A stretch of 64,000 nucleotides of DNA from Planctomycetota bacterium. Its GTDB lineage: Bacteria > Planctomycetota > SZUA-567 > H5-PLA8. The DNA is taken from positions 32,001-96,000 of the forward strand of contig JBBRPR010000028.1 in the NCBI GenBank assembly GCA_038227875.1. Reading direction: 5' to 3'. The position numbers and the translations under genes are program-made. A model generated the notes under the pieces. It was given only the letters and a program-made list of their open reading frames with translations, searched no databases and was not told where the DNA came from. Positions within the stretch are counted from its first letter, which is position 1, and each line of letters begins with the position of its first letter. Below are positions 48,274-62,661 of the stretch, piece after piece.

Positions 48274-49923
48274 TTATTGCTTGCCGAGTCGCGACAACGC
48301 TTCGCTCAGCCATTCCGACGGAATGGTGCCGCTGATCTTGATCTCATCCATGGCAATGCCGTCGCTGAGTCCCTGCAGCCAGAGCTGGCCGGGTTTCTCA
48401 CCAAAGTTAGGCGGCAGCGTGTAGCCGGTGCTCTTCTCGTCGCGGGAGGACATCGAGGCGCGGTAGCCGCCGCGATCGGTCTTGATCTCCAGCCCGAGCT
48501 TCTCCGGCTTGTCGCTCTCTTTTCGCGCGGAAAGATTGGAACTGTGGGCGCGCGTGTTGTTCTCGCGCACCTGCATCACCGCGTCGCGGCTGACGTCGAC
48601 GGACACTCCCCGCTCCGGCGAGTACAGCGCGCCAAAGGCGAGGCTCCGTTCCGCGCGGACATCGCGGTTGAGCGTCAGCGTCATCGAAATCGGTCCGGCG
48701 AACGGGACGATGTGAGCGAAGCGCGCGTTGGGAACGGCAATCGCGCCGTCCGGGCGCTTGGAGAGCGTGGAGGGTCCGGCCGGTTCGGGCAACCAATCTT
48801 CCGTGAGTTGCTTGGTTTCGCGGCCGTAGGTCAGTTCCACTTCGACGCCCGACGACGAGCGGCTGCGCAGCTTCACGCGTCCGTTGAACAGGCGCTGCAG
48901 ATCCGCCTCGGTGGCCAGTTCCACGCGCCAGCCGGGCACGCGCGCGCCGACAACCGATTCGGTGCGGCCCTTGGGTTGACCGCTGCCTTCGAGGTACTTC
49001 GAGCCGGGGCCGAGCGTCGTGGTGACTTCCGTGCCCGCATGCCGCGAGACGACAATCGCGCTGCCGGAAACGACCAGCGCGCTGCCGTCGAAGGCGCTGC
49101 CGTTCTTGGTGACGTTGACGAACAACTGCGTGCCGGGATCGGGCAGGACCAATCCCAGGTCCGAATGGACGTCCCACTTCATCAGTCGCGGCGCGTTCTT
49201 GTCGGGGTTGGCCAGCGGCTTGTTGACGCCCAGTTCGCCGCTCTCCACGGAGATGCTGAACGCGTCTACGGAACTGGATTGCGGTTCCAGCGTCACGTGC
49301 GACGACGGGCCGATAAAGAGCGCCGTGCCGTCGTTGAGGTCGATGCGCGCGCGGCCGCCTTCGGGCGTGATCACCGTGTCGCCGGCGTAGATCGTCTCGC
49401 CTTCGTGCGCTGCGCGCGGTGAGCGGCCTTCGCTGGCGTTGCCGGTCTCAACCGCGCCGTTGACCAGCGAGAGCGCGCCGAGTTGCGTGTGCGGGTAGAG
49501 CAGACTGTTCTTGCCGGTAAAGAAAATCAGAATCAGTGCGGTGACGCCGATGATCAGCGCCAGCACCACGCCCCAGACGCGCGAACGGGAGACTTTTTCG
49601 CTGCGCTGACTGGCGAATTTGGTCAGTCGCGCGGCGCGGCGGGCTTCGACGCGCAGCCGTTTTTCCGGCGGCAGCGCGCGGATGATCTTGGCCGATTCCA
49701 CCGACGCTTCCGCGCGCACCGCGCGCGAGAAATCCGGCGTGCCTTGAACGGGACGCATCGCGGGGACGGCTTCCAGCATCTTCCCTGTGCCCTTCAATTC
49801 GCGATACGCTTTCATACACGCGGGGCAAAGGTTCAGGTGCTCCTGGATTAACACCGCTTCGGCTTCTGGAAGTTCATCCAGAAGGAAGTCGGCCAGATAT
49901 TCGGTGCACTTTTCACAGTCCAT
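48274..49923 (-). CDS. zf-HC2 anti-sigma factor with TM and FecR domain
   Basis: MDCEKC...HLNLCPAC, one TM helix and GDTVIT...LNDGTALFIGPSS...GEL. Confidence 0.88.
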   Translation of the reverse strand: MDCEKCTEYLADFLLDELPEAEAVLIQEHLNLCPACMKAYRELKGTGKMLEAVPAMRPVQGTPDFSRAVRAEASVESAKIIRALPPEKRLRVEARRAARLTKFASQRSEKVSRSRVWGVVLALIIGVTALILIFFTGKNSLLYPHTQLGALSLVNGAVETGNASEGRSPRAAHEGETIYAGDTVITPEGGRARIDLNDGTALFIGPSSHVTLEPQSSSVDAFSISVESGELGVNKPLANPDKNAPRLMKWDVHSDLGLVLPDPGTQLFVNVTKNGSAFDGSALVVSGSAIVVSRHAGTEVTTTLGPGSKYLEGSGQPKGRTESVVGARVPGWRVELATEADLQRLFNGRVKLRSRSSSGVEVELTYGRETKQLTEDWLPEPAGPSTLSKRPDGAIAVPNARFAHIVPFAGPISMTLTLNRDVRAERSLAFGALYSPERGVSVDVSRDAVMQVRENNTRAHSSNLSARKESDKPEKLGLEIKTDRGGYRASMSSRDEKSTGYTLPPNFGEKPGQLWLQGLSDGIAMDEIKISGTIPSEWLSEALSRLGKQ

Positions 49924-50013
49924 AGTATTGGCTTCGCGGCTCACGAAAATGAGTGAGCGATCCCCTTTTTAACTACACCGTCACAGTACGGGTTTCAGCA
50001 TCTTGTACTATTC

Positions 50014-50676
50014 TCACAAGTAATCCTTGATGGACTTCCGCAGGCGCTCCAGTGCAGAATAGATACGCGCCCGCACCGTGCCCACGGGTACGCCGACGAC
50101 CTCGGCGATCTCGCGGTACTTCAGGCCCTGAAAGCGGTTGAGGATAAGCACTTCACGTTCCGCTTCGGGCAGTGCTTCCAACGCTTTTTCCAGCCGCTGA
50201 TCGCGTTCGCGGCTGACCATTTCGTCGAGCGGACTGGTGCCGGCCGATTGCAGGTAATCGCCGACGCGCGCCGAGTCCTCCCCGCCGCCGTGCGATGACG
50301 AGAGGCTGTCTTCGATCGAGACCGTCGGATGGCGCGAACGCCAGCGCAGCTCGTTCTTGCAGAGGTTGCGGACGATGGTGTAAAACCACGTCGTGAAGCT
50401 GCGCGGGTACTGGTAGCTCTTGGCATCTTTGAAAATGCGCAAAAACGCTTCCTGCCCCAGCGCCTCGGTGCGGCTCTGGTCGCCGACGAGCCGGTTGATG
50501 AACGACAGCGCCTGGCCTTCGTAGCGCTGGAAGAGGACCTCAAACGCCGCTTCGTCGCCGTCCTGGCACAGATGCATCAGGTCTTCGTCGGACATCGAAT
50601 CGACCGATTGGAGCTCATCGATTTCCGGAATTTCCGACGGCGCAGCGGCAGACTTGCTCGGAGTTTCTTCCGGCAC
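50014..50676 (-). CDS. ECF sigma factor
   Basis: SDEDLM...GDEAAF, FTTWFYTIVRNLCKNELR and YREIAEVVGVPVGTVRARI. Start uncertain. Confidence 0.93.
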   Translation of the reverse strand: MPEETPSKSAAAPSEIPEIDELQSVDSMSDEDLMHLCQDGDEAAFEVLFQRYEGQALSFINRLVGDQSRTEALGQEAFLRIFKDAKSYQYPRSFTTWFYTIVRNLCKNELRWRSRHPTVSIEDSLSSSHGGGEDSARVGDYLQSAGTSPLDEMVSRERDQRLEKALEALPEAEREVLILNRFQGLKYREIAEVVGVPVGTVRARIYSALERLRKSIKDYL

Positions 50677-52610: not shown

Positions 52611-53462
52611 TCAACGCTTCACCAACCGCATCGCATCCCCATGCCACAACGTCTCGATCCCATCGATGCCCCATTTCTCAAGGCCGATGGACGGGTCGCC
52701 CATCTCGACGAGATTGTTCGGCAGAATGCGGCTGAAGAGCACCGAATGCGCCACGCCCGGCGTCCAGCCCCAGTTCTGTTCGTAGCGTACGTCGGTGCCG
52801 GGCTTCTTGTCGAGCCGGACACTCAGGATCAGCGGGCCTTTCAGCTTGCCGCTTTTCAGGTCGTCGACGGTGCCGCGGAGCACCTCCACGTCGTAGGGCG
52901 TGCCGGCGGTTTTCAGTTTCAGGCCGCGGTAGAGGCCATACCAGAGCGTCCCGTTGGTGCGCGTCAGGCAAAGGCGGATCATCTCCTGCTCGGTGGTCCG
53001 GATGCCGACAGTGCGCAGCAACGTCGCGGCGCAGGCGGCGCTGCAGCTGGAATCCGACGACTGAATCGCGACGCCTTCGCGCGTCCAGTAATCGCCACCC
53101 TGCGGCACGGGTCCCACCAGCGGCGCGATCAGCGTGTAGGTGCAGGCGACGATCAGTAGCACGCAGTAGATCCCGCGGCGCAGGCGGCCGCCGGGGATGC
53201 GCTTGACCACCAGCCCTGTCAGCAGCCCGCCAAACAGGATCAGCCAGTTGCCGACGATGATTGCGTTGGAGAACGGTAGCATCCGGATCAGCAGCGCCGA
53301 TTCGCGCAAGAAAATGGCGTACAGAAAAAGCCCGACAATGGTCAGCGTGATCGCCGCCAGCGACGCGCGCTGAGATAGTCGCGCGTCGGCTTTCAGCCCC
53401 AAAAATAACAGGACCGCGGCCAGGCTGACCATGATGCCGAGTCCAATATAGATGTCGGCCAT
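52611..53462 (-). CDS. Membrane-bound C39-like cysteine peptidase
   Basis: Four N-terminal TM helices, then QSSDSSCSAACAATLL, HSV and DP. Confidence 0.8.
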   Translation of the reverse strand: MADIYIGLGIMVSLAAVLLFLGLKADARLSQRASLAAITLTIVGLFLYAIFLRESALLIRMLPFSNAIIVGNWLILFGGLLTGLVVKRIPGGRLRRGIYCVLLIVACTYTLIAPLVGPVPQGGDYWTREGVAIQSSDSSCSAACAATLLRTVGIRTTEQEMIRLCLTRTNGTLWYGLYRGLKLKTAGTPYDVEVLRGTVDDLKSGKLKGPLILSVRLDKKPGTDVRYEQNWGWTPGVAHSVLFSRILPNNLVEMGDPSIGLEKWGIDGIETLWHGDAMRLVKR

Positions 53463-53665
53463 CTTTAGCGTCTGCCTCTATAAAGCGGGAGATGAGCGAA
53501 ACTTATAACGAATCTTGAGCACCGCAGCGATTCCGTTGCAAATCCAGTGTAATCAACTCAGCCCACGTGGCTCTTTATATCGGTTACGCGCCGCCAGCTC
53601 AACCAGTTCGGCGTGCAGAAGCTTCCGGATCTTACGACAGGTAGTGAACACGGGATGAAAAGACT

Positions 53666-54196
53666 TTGCTCCTGACTGCTGCCGGCCAATTTACGGCTGA
53701 TGCCACCGAACGCGAGTTGGAAGGACTCTTCCAGCGCTACGCGCCAGGCCTGGGCAGCTATTTTCTGGCGCGGCTGCGCGATCCGGAGCTGGCTGAAGAG
53801 CTTACGGCGCGCGTGTTCGTCATGGCGGTGCAGAAGTTCGAGCAATGCCGCGGCAATCGCGCCGGCTGGCTGTGGGCGATTGCGCAGAGCGTCCTGTCGC
53901 GGTACGTGCGCGACCGCAATCGCGTGCCGCCGCCGCCGCTGAACGTGGCCGAACGCGACCCGGGCGAGGCGGCCGAGCAGCGTGAATTGCAGGCGCGGCT
54001 GCCGGAGATCCTGAGCGAATTGAACGAGCAGCAGCATGAAGTGGTCTACCTGAAATACTTTCAAGATTTGAGCAACACCGAGATTGCCGAAGCGACCGGC
54101 ATGACGCCGGCGAACGTCGCGGTGGTGCTCCATCGAACGTTAAAGCGCCTGCGCGAGCTGATCGATGCGCCCGCGGCGCGGGAGAAAATGGCATGA
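53666..54196 (+). CDS. ECF sigma factor
   Basis: LAEELTARVF...GWLWAIAQ and LSNTEIAEATGMTPANVAVVLHR. TTG start; the stop overlaps the next ATG (ATGA). Confidence 0.9.
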   Translation: MLLTAAGQFTADATERELEGLFQRYAPGLGSYFLARLRDPELAEELTARVFVMAVQKFEQCRGNRAGWLWAIAQSVLSRYVRDRNRVPPPPLNVAERDPGEAAEQRELQARLPEILSELNEQQHEVVYLKYFQDLSNTEIAEATGMTPANVAVVLHRTLKRLRELIDAPAAREKMA

Positions 54197-57100
54197 CCGA
54201 CGGTGACCTGAATCCAGACGACGCGCGACTCGGCGCGCAATTGCGCGCCGCGCGACCGCAGCTTTCCGCGGCCGCGCTGGCGCGCGCGCATGCCGCGATG
54301 CGCCGCGAACTCAACATCCGTAACGAAACGCGCCGGAGCTTTCAGGATCGACGCCGCCCGCTGGTCGCCGCCATCGCGGCGCTCTTTGCCGTGGGATTGC
54401 TGATCGCGTGGTACGCCGTCACGGTGACGCCGCATGCCACGGAAATCGTGCAGGTGAAATCGCCCGGCGAAGCCTTTCACGCGGCGGAGCTCGAACAACG
54501 GCGCCGCGAGGAACTCAAGGCGAAGTACGCCCTCGCCAAATCGCCGGCGGAGCAGGCGGCGCTGGCCGCGGAGCTGGCGAAGATCACGCCGGATAATCAG
54601 ATTCCGCAGTGGATGCGCTTCGACGCGGCGATGGGCCTGGTGAATCCGCGGCTGAAGTGGCACGCAGCGGGATTCGCGTACGGGTCATACTTCCAATCAG
54701 CGGACCGCCTTAAACATGCGCGCGCCGACCAATACCGCTTCGAGGCACACAATGGCGAACAGTGGATGCGGGACGCGATTCCGGCGAACGTCAAATTTGA
54801 CCTCAAAACACATTCGAATGGCAGACTGGCACGGCAGGAAGCCCGGCTTCAGAGTGCAAACGAGCCGGAGTTTTTCTGGACCGTCGACGACCCGAAGTCT
54901 CCCGACGTGACGCGTGCCGTGGCGCTGCTGGGCAGCGTCCACGACGACGTCAGCGCACGTTGGGTCGACGCGCTGCGGATCAACAACACTGTGCTGACGA
55001 TGGATGTGCGCGGCGGGTATGCCTCCGGCAGCGCCGCGCCGATTGTGCTGGACGCGCGCGCCGCCGACGAGATCACGTTCAAGCTCTACCGCGTCGCCGA
55101 CGCCGCGAAACTGCAGGCCGCGGCGCAGCGCATCGGCACCGATTACATCTTTGCCGACCATGCTGAGATCAGAGCTGAGCAATTGGATATGGTGAAGTAC
55201 GCCATACAGGATGAAGTCATGAAGGACCTTCGAAAAAAGCTCGATCCGCTGCCCGAATTCTCGAACGCCGAGCTGGCGGGGTCCTGGCACGTCGCGGTCG
55301 GTGAGATGAAAGCGCTTCACATTCAGAAGTATGAGTTCCGGGACCGCTGGTGGGACGACGCGGAAGAGAACGACGAGCCCGACGCCGCATACTTCGACGA
55401 TGCTTGCTCGCAATTTGCCGCTCGGCTTCACCGTGAGTACTGGCCGGAGGAAGATGAACTCAGTGCCTGGACCTGCGCCCGCAAGTTCGAGATCCCCGCC
55501 GCCTCGCTCCAGCCTGGCGCATACGTGCTGGTCGCCGAAGCCAACGGCACGCGAGCCTGCGCGCCGATCCTCGTCGATTCGCTCAGCCTGACCCTGCGCC
55601 GCTGCCGCGACGGCGTGATGGTTGTCGCCAGCGACAATCAGGGCGCCGCGCCGGTCGCAAGAGCTCGCGTGCTCGCCGACGGCATGCTGCAGCCCAGTTC
55701 CACCGATGCAAGCGGCGTGGCGTTCGCGCGCGTCTTCGCGGCCGGCGACAAACCGATTCTCGTCGAAAAGGACGGCCGCTTCGCCATCGGCGGTTTCGGA
55801 AAAGTCTTCGACGGGATCTACAACGGTCCGGAGGAATATCAACGCGAACGATGGGATCTCGCCCGCTCGAGTTTGCGCCAGGCCCGCGCGACGGAGCGCG
55901 ATCTCGCCTCGGAAGACGCCGTCGGACAGGTGTTCGAAGACCGTCACGTCGCCGCCGCATACACCGACCGGCCGACCTACCGGCCGGGCCAGGACGTTCA
56001 ATTCAAGCTGATCGTGCGCACGCTCGGCCAGCCGCTGGATGTCGAAAAGTCCAGGGCCCCCGGTTTCCGCGATGAGGACTTCGACCGCGCCCGGCTGCTC
56101 CAATTGCCCAACCCCGGCACGACCGTGGCGTACGAAGCGCTCGACAAGAAAGGCCGCTCGATCGCCAGCGGCGCGATGGGCCTCAACGAATTCGGCACGG
56201 CCAGCGGCACGATCCATCTTTCCGACGAATGCGCGACCGGCGCCTGCGCGCTGCGCATCAACCTCAATGGCACGGCGCGAATCCTGCCCGACATCTTCAC
56301 GGTCAAGAATTACCGCCGTCCCAACTTCGAAGTCGCGCTCAAAGGCCTGCCGGAAAACCTGACGAAGCTGGCTGGCCAGAAGCTCACGCTTGAGGTCTCC
56401 GCGAAGTACTACTTCGGCAAAACCGTCGCGGGCGGGACGGCTCACGTCCGGCTGGTTCACGCCGACAGCTGGCGGCCCCTGGCGGAGAAAGACGTGGTGC
56501 TTTCGAACACTGGCGACACCGTCGCGGTGCTTCAACTTCCAGAGAAATTGATCGGCGGCGCGTACCACGTGATCTGCGCGGTCACCGACGACAGCAACCA
56601 GACCGTGACGCAGACGGCGGCAGCGAACGTCGACCTGCCGCCGGCGGTGAAAGCGGACTCGCTGGCCGACCTCCCGCGCTTTGCTCCGGCCAGCGAAGTG
56701 CTGCACATTTCTGGTTTGTCCACGGAAGTCACGGCCAAGCACGGCGACGTCACCGCGCGCTTCACACCCGACGCGAAGGGCGTCGCCGAACTGAAACTGG
56801 GCACCGGTTGGTGGACGCTCAGCGCCGATGGCAAATCCGCATCGCTCTTCGTTTACGGCGAGGGCGCGTACATCTTCAGCAACTTGAATGATGAAGAAAA
56901 GGGCTTCGTCAACATCGCCAACTACGGCAGCGAAGAGAGCGGCATGACTTACGAATACAACGGCCGCAAGCCGGAACTGTGGGCGCTCTTCGGCCGCCAG
57001 CACGCCGAGGTCGGCGGCACGATCAAGGTTCTGCTTTACGCTCCCAACGCGACGCGCGCGCTGCTGACGATGGAAGGCCGCACCGTGCTGGACTACGTGA

Positions 57101-59790
57101 TCGTCCCGCTCGACGGCGCCAGTTCGTACCACGTTGTCGAGATTCCAATCCGCGAGCGCCACGTGCCGAATTTCTACCTGCAAGGCTGCGCGATCGGGCA
57201 TCTGCCGGGCAATATGGCCGTTGCTAAAGAGGTGGATGAGCAGCAAAAGCTGGCCGAGGAATTGATCGGCAACGAGGGCGAAGACCCGAAGTGGTGCCGC
57301 GTCGACGTGCTCGATCCGCACGCGAAGCAGGGCGGCGAAAAGCTGAACGTCGAAGTGCGCTGCGATGCGGCCGAACACAAGCCCGGCGACGAGGTCGGTG
57401 TGACCGTTCGCGTCACGGGCCTTGACGGCAAGCCGCGCGAAGCGGAAGTGAGCCTCGCCGCCATCGACGCCAGTCTCTACGCCTTCGGCGAAGACCGCTC
57501 GGGCACACTCGCTCAAACATTCGCCGACGCGCGCCCGGACCGCCGCTTCCTGCCCAAGGCCTGGAAGATCAGCACCGGCAGATTGTTTCACGAACGGGAA
57601 CGGCAGAAAAACATGGAGATGTTGCGGCAGGCAGACCAGGCGAAAGCCCAAGCGGCAATGGCCATGGATGAGGCCTCGCAGAAGTTGGCGCAGAGCGCAA
57701 GGCTGGAGCGGGCGCTCGACCGCGCGCTGGAAGGCACGCCGTTGGGCAACCTGGGGGAGATGCCCGTCACGCAGATCCCGCTCACAGGCTGGCGCACCGA
57801 CTTCCGCGAAACGGCCGCGTGGCTGCCGCAGTTGCGCACGGACGCTCAAGGCCGCGTCGCCGCGCATTTCAAGCTCCCCGATTCGCTGACGCGCTACCGC
57901 GTCAACGCCGTGGGCCTGACGCGCCAGACGGAAATCGGTTCGGGGCGCAGCGACTTCGTCGCCACGCTGCCGCTTTCGGTCCAGGTTTTCCTGCCGCGCT
58001 TCGCCGTCGAAGGCGACCGGCTGCAGGCCACGGGTTTGATTCACAACACGACGGGTAAGGACGTGACCGTGCCGTTCGCGTTTGAAATTCAGAACGCGAC
58101 CTGCGCCGGGCCCGCCGCCGACACGGTGGCGCAGATGAGCTTCGATGGCGCGTCTACGCTCGTCCAAGGCAAGGTGCTCGTCGCCGCGCACGGTTCGGCG
58201 CATATCGGCGCGTGGCTCTCGATCGACAAGCTCGGTTCGGTCCGCGTGGGTTTGAGGGCCGGCGATAAGGACGCCGCCGACGCCGAGCAGCGCGACTTGC
58301 CCGTGATTCCCGACGGCCGGCCGCTGGACGTGGCGCTGAGCGGCGCGTCCAACGGCGAGATTCAACTGCCCATCGGTTACGTGCCGACCGATCTTCGCTT
58401 GAGCGTCTCGCGCAGCGTGCCGGCGGAAGCGTTGCAAGGTCTGGGGTATCTGATCGATTATCCCTATGGCTGCGTCGAGCAGACGATGAGCCGCTTTCTT
58501 CCTTCGGTCATGGTCAAGCACGCCTGGCAGCAAGGCGTCTGCGAGGTTCCCGCCGACGTGATGAAGCGTGCGCCTGACGTCCTGCAGAAGGGCCTCGAGC
58601 GCCTCTACAATTTCCAGCACACCGACGGCGGCTGGGGCTGGTGGGAGCATGACGCGACCAACGATGGCATGTCCGTGTACGTGGTCTACGGTCTGGCGCG
58701 CTGCAAAACCACTGGCACGCCGGTGAACGCCGACGTCTTCGCGCGCGGCTGCGCGTTCCTCAAGTCGCGCCTCAATGACGATAAGTTCGACCGCCAACTC
58801 TGGGCGCGCGGCTGGCAGGCTCTGGCGCTGGCCGGGACCGTTTCCGCCGACGAGTTGAAAGTGGCGCTGAAAAAAGTGGATGCCACGCTTCCGCCCGAGT
58901 CGCTGGCGTCGCTGGCGCTGGCCTGCAAGACGCTTGGTTTGGACGATGACGCAGCCGCCTTGCGCGCGAAGTTGCAAACCTGGGCGCCGCAATCCGCCGA
59001 GTCCCTCGCCATGAAGCTGAACGTCGAGACCGCGTTCGGCGACGTGGCTCCCGCCCGCATCACCGCAGATGCGCTGATGGCGCAGCGCACCGGTTTGCGC
59101 TGGCTCAGCACCAAGGATACGTCGTGGGCCATCGAAGCGATGACCGGCCTGGTCACGCATCTGCCGCCGCTGGGACCCGCGCGCGCTTTCAAATTGAGCA
59201 TGGCCGGCCAGACGCTGATCGAAGCGACCACCGCCGCGCAGCTCACGAAGCGTGTCTTCGATCTGCACCTCACCGGCGCGCAGCTTCCGCTCGTGGAACG
59301 AGCGGTGCTGACGCTCAACGCGGACTTTCCCGAACCGCTCCACTACGCGCTGAATGCCACGGGTTACCAGCATCTGCAGAAAGTTGAACCGACCGGCACC
59401 AGCGTACAGATGACGCGCAAGTACCTCACGACCGACGACAAGCCGCTGGCCACGACGAGCAAAGTCGGCGATTGCATCGCGGTGCATGTCACGGTCAAGC
59501 TGGAGCGCCGCCAGGAGTACGTAATGCTCGAAGACCGCCGCCCGGCCGGCTGGGAATTCGCCGCCGATGTCCTGCACGGTGAAGCCGCCGGACACGCCGC
59601 GAACACGGAGTTCCGCGACGACCGGTTGTGTGTCTTCTTCGATGCGCTGGAAGCCGGTGAGCATGAGCTGGTTTACTACCTTCGAGCAGAGACGCCGGGA
59701 GTGAGCCACGTGATTCCGGGCTGCACGTATCCGATGTATGGTGAGAAGACGCGCGGCGAGACGGGGGCGGATGTGTTGGAGATTAAGTAG
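54193..59790 (+). CDS. Alpha-2-macroglobulin-family protein with anti-sigma-like N-terminus and TM anchor
   Basis: YTDRPTYRPGQ (MG2), NEFGT, YRRPNFEV, AKYYFG, RTDFRETAAW, LPDSLT, thioester PYGCVEQ (CVEQ at 58471-58482), DGGWGWW and YYLRAETPG...YPMY. Confidence 0.9.
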   Translation: MTDGDLNPDDARLGAQLRAARPQLSAAALARAHAAMRRELNIRNETRRSFQDRRRPLVAAIAALFAVGLLIAWYAVTVTPHATEIVQVKSPGEAFHAAELEQRRREELKAKYALAKSPAEQAALAAELAKITPDNQIPQWMRFDAAMGLVNPRLKWHAAGFAYGSYFQSADRLKHARADQYRFEAHNGEQWMRDAIPANVKFDLKTHSNGRLARQEARLQSANEPEFFWTVDDPKSPDVTRAVALLGSVHDDVSARWVDALRINNTVLTMDVRGGYASGSAAPIVLDARAADEITFKLYRVADAAKLQAAAQRIGTDYIFADHAEIRAEQLDMVKYAIQDEVMKDLRKKLDPLPEFSNAELAGSWHVAVGEMKALHIQKYEFRDRWWDDAEENDEPDAAYFDDACSQFAARLHREYWPEEDELSAWTCARKFEIPAASLQPGAYVLVAEANGTRACAPILVDSLSLTLRRCRDGVMVVASDNQGAAPVARARVLADGMLQPSSTDASGVAFARVFAAGDKPILVEKDGRFAIGGFGKVFDGIYNGPEEYQRERWDLARSSLRQARATERDLASEDAVGQVFEDRHVAAAYTDRPTYRPGQDVQFKLIVRTLGQPLDVEKSRAPGFRDEDFDRARLLQLPNPGTTVAYEALDKKGRSIASGAMGLNEFGTASGTIHLSDECATGACALRINLNGTARILPDIFTVKNYRRPNFEVALKGLPENLTKLAGQKLTLEVSAKYYFGKTVAGGTAHVRLVHADSWRPLAEKDVVLSNTGDTVAVLQLPEKLIGGAYHVICAVTDDSNQTVTQTAAANVDLPPAVKADSLADLPRFAPASEVLHISGLSTEVTAKHGDVTARFTPDAKGVAELKLGTGWWTLSADGKSASLFVYGEGAYIFSNLNDEEKGFVNIANYGSEESGMTYEYNGRKPELWALFGRQHAEVGGTIKVLLYAPNATRALLTMEGRTVLDYVIVPLDGASSYHVVEIPIRERHVPNFYLQGCAIGHLPGNMAVAKEVDEQQKLAEELIGNEGEDPKWCRVDVLDPHAKQGGEKLNVEVRCDAAEHKPGDEVGVTVRVTGLDGKPREAEVSLAAIDASLYAFGEDRSGTLAQTFADARPDRRFLPKAWKISTGRLFHERERQKNMEMLRQADQAKAQAAMAMDEASQKLAQSARLERALDRALEGTPLGNLGEMPVTQIPLTGWRTDFRETAAWLPQLRTDAQGRVAAHFKLPDSLTRYRVNAVGLTRQTEIGSGRSDFVATLPLSVQVFLPRFAVEGDRLQATGLIHNTTGKDVTVPFAFEIQNATCAGPAADTVAQMSFDGASTLVQGKVLVAAHGSAHIGAWLSIDKLGSVRVGLRAGDKDAADAEQRDLPVIPDGRPLDVALSGASNGEIQLPIGYVPTDLRLSVSRSVPAEALQGLGYLIDYPYGCVEQTMSRFLPSVMVKHAWQQGVCEVPADVMKRAPDVLQKGLERLYNFQHTDGGWGWWEHDATNDGMSVYVVYGLARCKTTGTPVNADVFARGCAFLKSRLNDDKFDRQLWARGWQALALAGTVSADELKVALKKVDATLPPESLASLALACKTLGLDDDAAALRAKLQTWAPQSAESLAMKLNVETAFGDVAPARITADALMAQRTGLRWLSTKDTSWAIEAMTGLVTHLPPLGPARAFKLSMAGQTLIEATTAAQLTKRVFDLHLTGAQLPLVERAVLTLNADFPEPLHYALNATGYQHLQKVEPTGTSVQMTRKYLTTDDKPLATTSKVGDCIAVHVTVKLERRQEYVMLEDRRPAGWEFAADVLHGEAAGHAANTEFRDDRLCVFFDALEAGEHELVYYLRAETPGVSHVIPGCTYPMYGEKTRGETGADVLEIK

Positions 59791-59821
59791 GGATTGCCTC
59801 TTTTCCGCGGCGAGCTGCCGG

Positions 59822-60005
59822 GCTTTTTGTAGTCCGGGCGTCTCGCCCGGAGTCGCAAGTATTCAGCACTAAAGATGAATTCGTTCGATAGCCACTTCAT
59901 TTGCGAAGCACTAAAGCTGTCGCGGTAGACCACGAAACGTGACTGGCTTACCCAATTCGTGTCGCAGTTACTTTCTCCGGGCGAGACGCCCGGACTACAA
60001 AAAGC
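59822..60005. repeat. GTAG-type REP inverted doublet (REPIN/MITE-like)
   Basis: Perfect 31-bp terminal inverted repeat GCTTTTTGTAGTCCGGGCGTCTCGCCCGGAG between convergent genes. Confidence 0.88.
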
Positions 60006-60026
60006 ACAGCGCGCCCGCCGAATGCA

Positions 60027-61283
60027 TTACTCCACTACATGACGCCGATACATGCGACAAACAGGCACGATCATCACCAACCACAACGTCCCCGCCCCAC
60101 ACGCCAGCACCGAATACGTCAGGTCGTTCACCGCGAAGCCGCCCACTTTCATTAACGAGAGCAGCCAGCCGGTGCTCCCCTTGCTGAAGCGGTAACCCCA
60201 GACATCGATCAACTCCTTGGCACGAAAACGGACGTCGTACGAGAAAGGGATGTACAGAATTTCCTTCCCGGCGCGGAAGACGGAGTAGTCCATCGTCTTG
60301 AACGCCAGCAGCGCCCACCACGCCGACGAGAGCGACGGATTTTTCCACGCGTAAAAACAGATGCTTAAGTTCACCAGCGGCATGAGAACGTGGACGAGCG
60401 TCAGCGGGAGCAGGCGGAGCATCAGCGGGCTGAAAATGAATTGGCCGACAGCGGCGGCGATGTTGACGTGGTACCAGAAGTCGCCCTGATAGGCGTTCTG
60501 CGCATCGAGGTTGGGAATCGCGTCCTGCAGGCGTCCCTGGAACGAAAGATCGAGCACCGAGGCGAGCGTCTGCGTGGAGAGGATGACCAGCAGCATCAGG
60601 ATCAGCATCGGATTGGATTTGAAGAGCGTCAGTCCCAGCGTGTCGACATGGCGCGCCGCTTCGGCGGGAGATTCCTGCGGCTCGCCGCAGCGGTGATAGG
60701 CCAGATCCGCCAGCAGCGCGGCGGGGATCACGGAGAGCGCGGCCAGGATCAGCAGATTGGCGGTGCCGAAGGTGCCGGAATATTCCGCGACCATCTTCGC
60801 GCCGACAATCGCGCCGGCCGATCCGAGCCCGCAGATCGGACCGTTCCAGTTCTTGGCCTGAAGCGTGCCGAGACGGCTATTCAGGAACGACCAGTATTGT
60901 TCGACCAGCAGCACGACGTAGGCTTCGCGCACAAGATAGAGCGCGCCACGCGCCGGCCGGAATCCGGAGCGGATGAGTACGTAACACGCGGCCATTCCCA
61001 ATCCGGACAGCAGCGACGTCGCCAGCAGCGTTTTGCGCGGGCCCAGCCACGTCAGCAGACGTCCGTAGCCATAAACGACCACCAGCACCGCCACCGGCAC
61101 GAGCGCAATGGCGTAGGGCAACGCTTCTTTGCCGTAGCCCATCGGCGCGGCTTCTTTGAAGAGCGAGTTGGACGTCGTGCGGATGAATTCATAGCCACAG
61201 AACAGAAACCCCGCCGCGATGCCAATGGCAATCGCCGCAAACGGCGCATGATTGTCGCGTGGGCTGAGCGTGACTTCGGGCAC
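60027..61283 (-). CDS. Npt1/TLC-like (ATP/ADP translocase family) MFS transporter
   Basis: About 12 TM helices and DYSVFRAGKEILYIP...RAKELIDVWGYRFSKG. Confidence 0.78.
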   Translation of the reverse strand: MPEVTLSPRDNHAPFAAIAIGIAAGFLFCGYEFIRTTSNSLFKEAAPMGYGKEALPYAIALVPVAVLVVVYGYGRLLTWLGPRKTLLATSLLSGLGMAACYVLIRSGFRPARGALYLVREAYVVLLVEQYWSFLNSRLGTLQAKNWNGPICGLGSAGAIVGAKMVAEYSGTFGTANLLILAALSVIPAALLADLAYHRCGEPQESPAEAARHVDTLGLTLFKSNPMLILMLLVILSTQTLASVLDLSFQGRLQDAIPNLDAQNAYQGDFWYHVNIAAAVGQFIFSPLMLRLLPLTLVHVLMPLVNLSICFYAWKNPSLSSAWWALLAFKTMDYSVFRAGKEILYIPFSYDVRFRAKELIDVWGYRFSKGSTGWLLSLMKVGGFAVNDLTYSVLACGAGTLWLVMIVPVCRMYRRHVVE

Positions 61284-61344: not shown

Positions 61345-61425
61345 GCCTACCGTGGAATTAAGCTGCTCTTGCTGGGCGCGGTTCGTATACTCGCGGCGTT
61401 CGCACCCTTACTGAGATCACTGACT

Positions 61426-62661
61426 ATGCAACATTCACTTCGATTATGTTCGATTCTTCTGCTGTCGCTGCTCTGCGCCCAACTGCGAGCGGAGAGTGCG
61501 CCGGTTTTCTTTCCTGAAGGGACGACGGAGACGACGGGGTGGACCGGCCGGCTCGTGCGCGTCGACGAACACCTCGCGATTTTGACGGTGCGGGGCGGCG
61601 CGCCCGAACGCGGCGTGGCTCACGGCAAGCTGCTTAAGGCCGAGGTCGCGCTGTTGGTCAAGAGTGTCCGCGCGTATCTGACCGGGACCGCGGCTGACGG
61701 CGCGGAACACTACAAGCAGTGTCTCGACGGCGCGCGGACGATGGGCAAGTTTCTCGACGAAGACGTGATGACCGAACTGAAAGCCTGCGCCGCCGCGGCG
61801 GGCGTGGACAGCGACGAGCTGCTGCTGGCTCAGTTGTTCGGCGACGTCAATCGTGCCAAGGGATTCACCTCCTATTGTTCCTCGTTTGCAGCCTTTGGCG
61901 AGGCGACGGCCGGCGGCAAGCTGCTCGTGGGCCGCAATTTCGATTACGCCGGACACGGCTTGGAAGGCGGCGTGCCGTTGATTCTGCAGGAGATTCCTGA
62001 TGGCAAAGGCGCCGGCCGGCCCTTCGTGACGCTCTGCTACGCCGGGATTCTCAATGGCTGGACGTCGATGAATGCCGATGGCCTCTGCGCGAGCAACAAT
62101 ACCTTGTTCGGTGGCAAGGGTTCGGATTCTCTCGAAGGAATCTCGACGTGCTTCCTGCTGCGCAAGATTGTCGAGCAGGCGACGACGGTCGAGGACGGCG
62201 TCGCGATCATCCAGAAATCCCCGCGCGCCTGTACGACCGGGATGCTCGTCGCCGGCAAGAACAAGCAGGGCGCGTGGGACGGCCGGTTCGTGGAATTTGA
62301 TGCGAAGTCTGTCGTCGTCGTCGAGCCCAAGGACGGCATGGTGCTCGGTACGAACAAGCGGCAGATTCTCGCCGTGAACGGCATTGACCCTCCGAAAGTG
62401 GTGGAATGCGGGCGCTTTCAAGCGCTCAAGAAATACCTGACGGGACTGCACGGCAAATTGTCCTTCGATGACAAAACGCAGAATCCGGTAGCTGAGAAGG
62501 ACGTCACGCTGACGATCAACCTGCACTGCGCGCTGCTCGACCCGGTCGGCCAGCGCATCCGCGCGGCGTTTGTCACGGGCGATTCCAAGCCCGCGGCGGA
62601 GAAGCCCTTTCGGGATTTTGAGGTGAAGAGCACGTCTGTGGTGCTGACCAAGAAGGAGTGA
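61426..62661 (+). CDS. Secreted C45-family (AAT-like) Ntn hydrolase
   Basis: Signal peptide, GAPERGVAHG, nucleophile CSSF, GRNFDY and MNADGL. Confidence 0.82.
   Translation: MQHSLRLCSILLLSLLCAQLRAESAPVFFPEGTTETTGWTGRLVRVDEHLAILTVRGGAPERGVAHGKLLKAEVALLVKSVRAYLTGTAADGAEHYKQCLDGARTMGKFLDEDVMTELKACAAAAGVDSDELLLAQLFGDVNRAKGFTSYCSSFAAFGEATAGGKLLVGRNFDYAGHGLEGGVPLILQEIPDGKGAGRPFVTLCYAGILNGWTSMNADGLCASNNTLFGGKGSDSLEGISTCFLLRKIVEQATTVEDGVAIIQKSPRACTTGMLVAGKNKQGAWDGRFVEFDAKSVVVVEPKDGMVLGTNKRQILAVNGIDPPKVVECGRFQALKKYLTGLHGKLSFDDKTQNPVAEKDVTLTINLHCALLDPVGQRIRAAFVTGDSKPAAEKPFRDFEVKSTSVVLTKKE

Follow-up and report, generated by a model that had tools for sequence, protein, structure and literature searches.

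Why does the gene of an ECF sigma factor run directly into that of a giant macroglobulin? The initial annotation of the window (the whole 64,000-nucleotide stretch of Planctomycetota DNA analysed here) had placed an alpha-2-macroglobulin (A2M) in the slot of an anti-sigma factor, downstream of an ECF gene. The two genes meet as follows:

53666-54196, + strand: ECF (group IV) sigma factor gene, 176 aa (Pfam region 2 and region 4 matches, TIGR02937 above cut-off)
54193-54196, + strand: ATGA stop/start overlap, translational coupling (read from the sequence)

The ECF gene opens with TTG, the first in-frame start, and its exact start is uncertain. Its product matched Sigma70_r2 (PF04542, E 4.5e-6) and Sigma70_r4_2 (PF08281/PF04545, E 4.7e-13) and scored 71.7 bits against TIGR02937 (cut-off 42.9); no NCBIfam subfamily matched at its own cut-off. 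It has sigma-2 and sigma-4 only, the domain set of group IV sigma factors (about 170-220 aa), and shares 34-52% identity with 34 orthologs (alignment A4). As first described, its stop overlaps the next start, the TGA (54194-54196) overlapping the ATG (54193-54195) of an 1865-aa ORF (54193-59790, + strand). This overlap and a gene order kept in orthologs point to an adjacent, co-transcribed cognate regulator.

The long protein begins with two features that bear on its possible contact with the sigma factor:

54193-54360, + strand: residues 1-56, cytoplasmic anti-sigma-like segment (conservation, homology to small proteins, co-fold)
54361-54423, + strand: residues 57-77, single transmembrane helix, a signal anchor, probably N-in (Kyte-Doolittle 2.41, Arg-rich stretch before it)

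A charged N-terminus followed by one transmembrane helix and no lipobox had been described, and this was borne out. Residues 1-56 are hydrophilic and Arg-rich, the one hydrophobic helix (about residues 57-77) follows the Arg-rich stretch, and the first 80 residues lack Cys and hence a lipobox. In place of the lipoprotein signal peptide of ECAM-type A2Ms, the protein therefore carries a long hydrophilic N-terminus and a transmembrane helix. The length and conservation of this segment also speak against a cleaved signal peptide; L17, R21, P22, L24, A28, M36, R38 and E39 are invariant in six fused proteins that are 31-43% identical overall.

The segment did not resemble a catalogued anti-sigma domain. 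Pfam anti-sigma models (zf-HC2, RskA and others) gave no match to it even at E values up to 10, and Pfam searches with the cytoplasmic segment and with residues 1-600 returned no meaningful family. Residues 1-56 contain no Cys and no zinc motif (ZAS pattern H-x3-C-x2-C). The NCBIfam model NF052375, 'anti-sigma factor', reached E 0.02 (14.9 bits) with the window protein and E 4.6e-5 to 3e-4 with three small relatives, all far under its cut-off of 100 bits. Class I anti-sigma factors have a four-helix domain that family models recognise; without a Pfam anti-sigma match, the segment cannot be recognised as a class I ZAS domain. Among solved structures, a profile of the segment (A5) gave no related entry (best E 0.13); searched against the genome of the window, it matched strongly only the window's copy (E 4.4e-20), with five weak matches besides.

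Relatives of the segment were found elsewhere in the phylum. It is homologous to a stand-alone, unannotated single-pass protein of 100-190 aa, and Planctomycetota have a conserved operon in which an orthologous ECF gene is followed by this small protein and then by a signal-peptide A2M of the window's subfamily. As had been proposed, linked ECF and A2M genes were searched for. Of ten A2M-subfamily loci in species-representative genomes, nine had an ECF immediately upstream; L060 lacked an ECF, and L056 had one but no recognised small protein. A single-pass ORF came directly after the ortholog ECF in 29 of 33 metagenome loci, the other four having at most 254 nt of downstream sequence. Where at least 3.5 kb of downstream sequence made a metagenome locus evaluable, an A2M of the same subfamily lay downstream of the ortholog ECF in 11 of 13 cases, versus 0 of 11 for comparison ECFs (at most 34% identity) from the same metagenome scan. 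Two ortholog loci, L069 and L070, have long downstream sequence and no A2M. The one full-length ortholog among 41 related genomes likewise has an ECF upstream. Linkage of the ECF and this A2M subfamily is thus kept across families of the phylum and, with relatives arranged as ECF, small protein and then same-subfamily A2M, the A2M belongs to the sigma factor's own operon.

Co-folding of the ECF with the N-terminal segment, another suggested check, predicted a complex. The ipSAE was 0.81 over three runs, compared with 0.02 for the best of three controls; of 157 solved complexes, 116 reach the mark applied to this score, as do 2 of 215 mismatched pairs. The runs shared at least 92% of contacts, with a partner pLDDT of at least 79. 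In the predicted interface, residues 7-47 of the partner sit between sigma-2 and sigma-4 and touch both domains (sigma residues 11-56 and 101-166). Because the anti-sigma profile has no relative in solved structures, it is unlikely that the co-fold succeeded through memory of a sequence-related anti-sigma factor. Predicted sigma binding, homology to the small protein behind the ortholog ECF and conserved linkage together make the anti-sigma role of residues 1-56 well supported, and agree with the initial placement of the A2M in the anti-sigma slot. Could the adjacency instead be incidental, with the N-terminus a mere signal anchor or cleaved leader and the ECF regulated otherwise? The failure of any curated anti-sigma family to score above threshold would fit. 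Yet ECF linkage and the cytoplasmic motif are both conserved, the co-fold passes with controls at or below 0.02, and 56 hydrophilic residues before the helix are too many for an ordinary signal peptide, so that we disfavour this explanation as very improbable.

At a threshold of E 0.001, the family of the small anti-sigma-like protein counts 254 cluster representatives; where these carry a name it is 'hypothetical', save for one 'LptA/OstA family protein'. Among the best 150 of these 254, a single protein exceeds 1000 aa. The anti-sigma motif is also joined to other periplasmic parts, namely a short tail, an LptA/OstA-like domain (L070, L077, L093) or MG0-NIE-MG1 only (L065). Neither the N-terminal extension seen in separate A2Ms nor the tail of the small protein is present in the fused form. 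It is a rare derivative, the two downstream genes having joined into one in the window's lineage. An assembly or frameshift artefact was ruled out, the fused form being present in six proteins at 31-43% identity from separate assemblies, and the absence of both the extension and the tail also opposes it.

A second fusion of an ECF-linked anti-sigma domain and an A2M, unrelated to the first, was found in the window's genome (G000:C14:162143-167793) and in other Planctomycetota. Here too the ECF gene overlaps that of an A2M which crosses the membrane once, has its N-terminal domain in the cytoplasm and keeps the thioester intact; for this type the ECF adjacency was verified with Pfam in four further genomes. 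Its N-terminal domain is longer than that of the window protein and looks like a classical anti-sigma domain (a relative, L171, matched zf-HC2 at E 2.6e-7), and its A2M, of a different lineage, ends in A2M_recep and has a thioester of the GCFEQ type. Differing in both parts, the second fusion arose independently. Not all four A2M paralogs of this genome are ECF-coupled: the copies on contigs C73 and C2 have signal-peptide-like N-termini and no adjacent ECF.

These gene arrangements bear on what the A2M does for the sigma factor. Since the usual form is a three-gene operon with a secreted A2M, the A2M is a co-regulated product at the least, and not necessarily a sensor. It may be only that, a regulated product and membrane cargo whose N-terminus binds sigma while the A2M body senses nothing. 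Fusion would then anchor the trap in place of the ECAM lipid anchor, with the inducing signal acting elsewhere on the anti-sigma segment or on sigma, and would provide one-to-one negative feedback, since each new trap molecule sequesters one sigma. The majority form with its separate third gene, the other periplasmic partners of the motif and the rarity of fused proteins are what such an account expects. On the other hand, the fusion has been retained down to 31-43% identity, and a second lineage made its own fusion, from another anti-sigma domain and another type of A2M. Moreover, the stand-alone small protein has a conserved periplasmic C-terminal tail in 9 of 9 metagenome loci with a separate A2M (degenerate in two) and lacks it in the two without; this co-occurrence points to a periplasmic contact between anti-sigma protein and A2M beyond mere co-expression. 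We regard the cargo account as possible but doubtful. A separate secreted A2M, as in the common three-gene form, fits a product as well as a sensor.

E. coli ECAM (YfhM) and the Salmonella A2M are periplasmic protease traps. The remainder of the window protein comprises the following parts:

54424-55932, + strand: residues 78-580, juxtamembrane stalk, helical bundle and MG0-NIE-MG1-like beta domains (AlphaFold2, Foldseek)
55957-56475, + strand: MG2 (residues 589-689, PF01835) and MG3 (residues 710-761, PF17791) (Pfam)
56998-57483, + strand: A2M bait-region domain (A2M_BRD), residues 936-1097 (PF07703, E 3.2e-9)
57568-57762, + strand: hypervariable bait-like stretch, residues about 1126-1190 (conservation minimum in 48 aligned homologs)
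57811-58071, + strand: A2M domain, residues 1207-1293 (PF00207, E 2.1e-15)
58435-58758, + strand: Pfam-matched part of the thioester domain (TED), residues 1415-1522 (PF07678)
59410-59739, + strand: bacterial MG10 (bMG10), residues 1740-1849 (PF17973, E 3.2e-17)

The six Pfam A2M domains, all above their cut-offs and running from MG2 to bMG10, confirm the full macroglobulin that had been described and constitute the domain set of the ECAM/YfhM type. Residues 78-580 were modelled with AlphaFold2 at a mean pLDDT of 80.7 (pTM 0.78), and the best Foldseek match of the model was the MG0-NIE-MG1 part of the E. coli A2M (4zjg, E 6.8e-7); 4u48 was matched as well (E 5.3e-4). The thioester reported at first sight is intact: CVEQ spans Cys1427 to Gln1430 (58471-58482), giving the protein the Cx-EQ of ECAM-type A2Ms, and this motif is kept in 47 of 48 aligned subfamily proteins, the sole exception being a truncated entry of 1234 aa. 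The bait-like stretch noted at about 57590-57760 coincides with the least conserved segment between the BRD and the A2M domain, where column conservation falls to 0.26-0.33 (residues 1126-1175) against 0.57-0.77 in the flanks.

Such anatomy also bears on whether the ectodomain might sense other envelope damage (peptidoglycan, outer-membrane or LPS defects), its thioester serving attachment and not protease capture. Sister anti-sigma proteins of the same family bear LptA/OstA-like periplasmic domains, the A2M homolog P0014 is recorded with PF03968, and large ORFs that look by eye like PBP1C follow other A2Ms in related genomes (L041, L043, L044). Against this, the full trap anatomy of BRD, hypervariable bait-like stretch and near-invariant Cx-EQ has been retained, and the window A2M has no adjoining pbpC-like gene: none lies within 4 kb downstream, where the ORFs match the TLC, AAT and PhyH families, and the pbpC (PBP1C) neighbour of the ECAM type is absent from this locus. 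We consider damage sensing of this kind improbable.

Signals for transcription were sought around the two genes:

53548-53553, + strand: -35-like block of a two-block motif (conserved upstream of orthologous ECF genes; putative function)
53569-53574, + strand: -10-like block of this motif, separated from the -35-like block by 15 nt and from the TTG start by about 92 nt
59808-59830, + strand: terminator-like hairpin with T-run, 18 nt past the stop of the A2M gene (weak evidence)

By pair counting, the top block pair occurred in 12 of 38 upstream regions, compared with a maximum of 4-7 in 20 shuffles; counted by eye, both blocks with a 15-nt spacer were present in at least 31 of the 38. We infer a putative promoter that the ECF itself would recognise, and thus autoregulation. 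A scan of 53300-60400 for sigma-70-type promoters returned 0 sites. The terminator-like hairpin is weak evidence, because the region holds no more such sites than shuffled sequences do. An RseP-type site-2 protease is encoded in the window's genome (167 bits).

E. coli RpoE-RseA and B. subtilis SigW-RsiW are pairs of an ECF and a single-pass anti-sigma factor under regulated intramembrane proteolysis. The window pair resembles them in a sigma factor with sigma-2 and sigma-4 only, in a directly downstream, co-transcribed partner gene whose product is single-pass, probably N-in and predicted to lie between sigma-2 and sigma-4, and in a site-2 protease homolog and a group-specific promoter-like motif. 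It differs in that the cytoplasmic segment has only about 45 residues, without zinc motif or Pfam anti-sigma match, and in its ectodomain, where a thioester A2M of 1790 residues takes the place of a small sensor domain. CnrY and NepR, examples of short (class II-like) anti-sigma factors, also have a very short sigma-binding segment of few helices; no sequence relation to them was found and we claim no membership. Like ECAM and the Salmonella A2M, the window protein has an MG0-NIE-MG1-like start, then MG2, MG3, BRD, A2M, TED and bMG10, with Cx-EQ, and like ECAM it is tethered to the inner membrane. Unlike ECAM, it has no lipobox but is anchored by a transmembrane helix with a predicted sigma-binding cytoplasmic segment; its gene is coupled to that of an ECF and not to pbpC, and an extra helical bundle follows the helix.

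Taken together, this giant membrane protein probably binds the sigma factor with its short inner tail, and its outer part has the build of a complete protease trap. To the fuller reading, a two-gene and probably self-regulated ECF module in which cognate anti-sigma factor and periplasmic trap are one polypeptide, we give an even chance. In this module the helices of residues 7-47 or so would wedge between sigma-2 and sigma-4 of the co-translated ECF and keep it inactive at the inner membrane; residues 57-77 would cross the membrane, and the remainder would be a complete ECAM-type thioester A2M tethered in the periplasm. In the likeliest mode of action, periplasmic proteolytic attack would consume or clip the tethered trap, whose remnant would become a substrate of the site-2 protease. 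Destruction of the cytoplasmic segment would free sigma, and the operon would then be induced from the conserved promoter-like motif, making more sigma and more trap. A bait cut at about residues 1130-1190 leaves more than 1000 periplasmic residues on the helix, and extra clipping near the membrane must therefore be assumed. A transmembrane helix bearing so many periplasmic residues is not a typical site-2 protease substrate.

More tentatively, the tethered A2M may be a true sensor: a foreign protease arriving in the periplasm would cut the bait, thioester-driven collapse of the trap would expose the juxtamembrane stalk to clipping, and intramembrane proteolysis would free the ECF. This is possible, but we hold it with some doubt.

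Judged by titles and abstract openings, we found no paper linking an A2M to ECF/anti-sigma signalling, and none covering the regulation of bacterial A2Ms in the literature searched. In the ECF re-classification (PMC7826278), the main text and the part of the supplement covered contain no 'macroglobulin', 'A2M' or 'MG2 domain'.

To our knowledge, the cellular role of bacterial A2Ms is still largely deduced from structure. Through this locus and the conserved operon of ECF, small anti-sigma-like protein and A2M, a protease trap with a thioester is linked, both physically and genetically, to a sigma factor of its own, and one protein would join envelope defence with gene control. Locus and operon offer a testable regulatory circuit for bacterial A2Ms. 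They also bring to light a new, unannotated family of short anti-sigma-like proteins, and the natural fusion suggests which of the proteins are likely to be in contact. Should the trap act as a sensor too, detection of protease activity would be a new type of ECF signalling input: the cell would detect an attacker's protease activity and respond by transcription, a bacterial analogue of sensing by effector activity ('guard' type) that uses a thioester protein of the complement/A2M family and was invented at least twice in Planctomycetota.

In the 9.3 Mb genome carrying the window (G000, 176 contigs), the stop codon of an ECF sigma factor gene overlaps the start of a gene for a 1865-aa alpha-2-macroglobulin (A2M), just as the initial annotation had placed it. 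The features of the locus are listed below; the A2M ORF and the overlap are direct readings of the sequence.

53548-53553 and 53569-53574, forward strand: blocks of a two-block promoter-like motif upstream of the window ECF
53666-54196, forward strand: ECF sigma factor ORF, 176 aa, TTG start, Sigma70_r2 and r4 (Pfam)
54193-54196, forward strand: ATGA stop/start overlap, ECF stop and A2M start
54193-59790, forward strand: A2M ORF, 1865 aa
58471-58482, forward strand: thioester motif (residues 1427-1430), present in 47 of the 48 subfamily proteins aligned
59808-59820, forward strand: terminator-like hairpin after the A2M stop, a kind of site not enriched over shuffles

As an ECF the sigma factor is unremarkable: it scores 71.7 bits on TIGR02937 (cut-off 42.9) and reaches the cut-off of no narrower NCBIfam family, and the solved structures nearest to it are 6dxo, 2q1z and SigL. 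A second ECF/anti-sigma pair lies 3 kb from the main locus on the reverse strand (48274-50676, ECF gene 50014-50676). The partner in this pair is a 556-aa anti-sigma that matches zf-HC2 (E 1.7e-6) and, weakly, a FecR-like domain, and the pair is an ordinary ECF/ZAS pair. Divergent from the ECF promoter region is a 283-aa multi-pass membrane protein (52611-53462, reverse strand) whose Peptidase_C39 match (E 3.9e-4) stays below threshold, at 20.7 bits vs a cut-off of 22. On the forward strand, 1.6 kb beyond the A2M, 61369-62661 encodes a 430-aa protein that begins with a signal-peptide-like segment and carries an AAT domain (acyl-CoA:6-aminopenicillanic acid acyltransferase / peptidase C45-like).

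The A2M opens with 56 hydrophilic, Arg-rich residues followed by a single hydrophobic helix (approximately residues 57-77), and no Cys occurs in residues 1-80. This bears out the charged N-terminus and lone transmembrane (TM) helix described earlier, and the topology is probably N-in. After the helix come MG2, MG3, A2M_BRD, A2M, TED and bMG10 (Pfam); these six domains and the thioester motif confirm the full macroglobulin with an intact thioester that had been annotated, and the sole aligned subfamily protein lacking the motif is a truncated entry. The bait-like stretch, too, had been placed where the least conserved stretch between the BRD and A2M domains is found, at residues 1126-1175 (conservation of 0.26-0.33 vs 0.57-0.77 alongside). 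Residues 78-580, modelled with a 19-row alignment (pLDDT 80.7, pTM 0.78), form a helical bundle, with beta domains after it. Structurally, this model matches best the MG0-NIE-MG1 of E. coli A2M (4zjg, E 6.8e-7), and Salmonella A2M (4u48) is also among the matches. Given the domain set, the thioester and the MG0-NIE-MG1-like fold, the whole periplasmic part is an ordinary ECAM-type trap; the unusual features of this A2M are its N-terminus and its neighbour gene.

Co-folding of the ECF with residues 1-56 (alignments of 35 and 33 rows, respectively) gave an ipSAE of 0.81 in each of three runs, compared with 0.02 for the best of three controls, in line with the proposed pairing. The same ipSAE mark is attained by 116 of 157 solved complexes and by 2 of 215 mismatched pairs; these counts are approximate here because custom alignments were used. 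At least 92% of contacts agreed between runs, with a partner pLDDT of at least 79, and in the model residues 7-47 contact both sigma-2 (sigma residues 11-56) and sigma-4 (101-166). The predicted complex supports sigma binding by residues 7-47. The window N-terminus matched no Pfam anti-sigma family, and its match to NF052375 ('anti-sigma factor') was far below the cut-off of that model.

Scanning species-representative genomes with the N-terminal alignment and one peptide pattern returned 10 loci, and the expected linkage was found in nine of them, where an ECF gene lies directly upstream of the A2M (seven loci Pfam-checked; L061, the G003 contig, checked apart; L059 counted as nearly identical to L058). 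Between the two genes, six loci (L055, L057, L058, L059, L062 and L063) encode a small single-pass protein of 126-170 aa whose cytoplasmic part aligns with the window N-terminus. L064 has a 172-aa ORF in this slot whose alignment is poor (17% identity), L056 has an ECF and no recognised small protein, and L060 (Verrucomicrobiales) is an A2M locus without an ECF. By record title, the loci come from Gemmataceae, Singulisphaera, Phycisphaeraceae, Tepidisphaerales, Planctomycetia and Methylacidiphilales, and the three-gene operon is present in Singulisphaera and Gemmataceae records. At the sequence level, the window N-terminus is therefore homologous to the protein that follows the ECF in relatives, which upholds the earlier proposal that the A2M occupies the anti-sigma slot. 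An anti-sigma role for the N-terminus, taken by itself, is highly probable.

A reverse scan of metagenomes with the ECF alignment gave 69 loci: an ortholog group of 33 (L065-L097; 36-58% identity, E 1e-32 or better) and 36 others (ECF identity 34% or less) that served as the internal control. A single-pass ORF follows the ECF at 29 of the 33 ortholog loci, at the four misses the downstream sequence extends over no more than 254 nt, and P22 and L24 are conserved at 90% or more in an alignment of 33 such N-termini. Where at least 3.5 kb of downstream sequence was available, an A2M of the window subfamily was found at 11 of 13 ortholog loci (all except L069 and L070) vs none of 11 control loci. 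L092 is fused as in the window. At the nine loci with a separate A2M, 1346-1483 nt separate the end of the small gene from the region matching residue 131-134, indicating an A2M with a long N-terminal extension of roughly 350 residues. At L065 (7480-9231), whose ECF is the closest, a 583-aa protein joins the anti-sigma segment and TM helix to an MG0-NIE-MG1-like region only, and no trap core was found within 7 kb. The gene overlap, the complete trap anatomy and the conserved ECF-A2M linkage are all directly evident.

Some A2M is present in 40 of 41 related genomes, and a full-length ortholog of the window A2M in only one (G003:C429; 44% identity over residues 14-1865), with an ECF gene 31 nt upstream. 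Residues 1-560 as the query retrieved 47 proteins, four of which (P0003-P0006) share the hydrophilic N-terminus and TM helix; the remaining proteins have signal-peptide-like starts, and many of them, at about 2200 aa, carry an additional N-terminal extension. L17, R21, P22, L24, A28, M36, R38 and E39 are invariant in six fused proteins (31-43% identical). Other A2Ms with a short TM anchor occur at L041, L043 and L044 (G024, G030 and G038), where an overlapping large downstream ORF resembles, by eye, a PBP1C-type transglycosylase, i.e. the classical A2M-pbpC pair without a lipobox.

A search of 1.84 billion proteins with the small-protein profile retrieved 254 cluster representatives at E values up to 0.001, 139 of them at E values up to 1e-10. 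Against solved structures the profile found no relative, its best hits (E 0.13) being to unrelated proteins. Among the best 150 of the 254, 135 are shorter than 200 aa, seven measure 233-252 aa, another seven measure 467-583 aa, and P0005 is the single fusion of A2M length; where sources give a name it is 'hypothetical protein', with the one exception of an 'LptA/OstA family protein'. From these sizes and names, the window architecture is a rare fusion within a sizeable, unannotated family. The tested 240-540-aa forms (L070, L077 and L093) have an LptA/OstA-like periplasmic domain. In this branch (L070 7516-9129, L077 702-1442, L093 4693-5427) the domain replaces a short tail; no A2M lies in the 4.9 kb downstream at L070, and the downstream sequence of L077 and L093 is too short to judge. 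For the A2M homolog P0014, PF03968 is on record as well. A conserved periplasmic tail ends about 22 of 29 stand-alone small proteins; it is present at all nine metagenome loci with a separate A2M (degenerate in two) and absent at the two loci without an A2M. Fused proteins have neither this tail nor the A2M N-terminal extension. This pattern, a correlation only, suggests a contact between tail and extension in the unfused form, which the fusion would have replaced.

A second such fusion is found on contig C14 of the same genome (G000:C14:162143-167793; locus L035 2144-7794), where an ECF gene overlaps that of a 1689-aa single-pass A2M. Its N-terminus is longer and resembles a classical anti-sigma domain, a TM helix is present, and the A2M belongs to a different type that has an A2M_recep C-terminus; its thioester is intact. 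Of 301 genomes sampled from the phylum, 30 contain a match to its first 300 residues, and in seven of these 30 (counting G000) that match extends into the C14-type N-terminal domain. ECF adjacency and A2M domains were Pfam-verified in four further genomes (L165, L166, L169 and L170), and full A2M domain sets were found in the relatives L167, L168 and L172; the shorter L171 has a zf-HC2 match (E 2.6e-7). With this independent case and its relatives, A2M-ECF wiring thus arose at least twice in Planctomycetota.

An ECF with a membrane anti-sigma is a well-known kind of system; the A2M ectodomain and the operon of ECF, small protein and A2M are not described in the literature searched. Our search for a link between A2M and ECF or anti-sigma factors found no paper, and the text and part of the supplement of the ECF re-classification paper (PMC7826278) contain no mention of A2M.

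The two-block motif recurs upstream of ECF genes: 12 of 38 regions share the best 5-mer/4-mer pair, compared with maxima of 4-7 obtained from 20 shuffles. Visual inspection places the two blocks, separated by a 15-nt spacer, in at least 31 of the 38, while L070, L091 and L093 lack them (L077 was outside the scan). The motif is probably the sigma factor's own promoter, which would make the system autoregulated. The A2M might be product and cargo only, with the fused segment giving one-to-one feedback; this main rival to a sensor role strikes us as possible, though rather unlikely. The sensor reading itself has a weakness: if only the bait is cleaved, the helix still carries a very large ectodomain, and an extra cut near the membrane therefore has to be assumed. 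The genome encodes an RseP-type site-2 protease (167 bits), and we infer that sigma is released by proteolysis. The best account, which we hold with about even confidence, is a self-regulated anti-protease module: the tethered trap would be lost or clipped, this would lead to site-2 cleavage, and that cleavage would in turn release the sigma factor.
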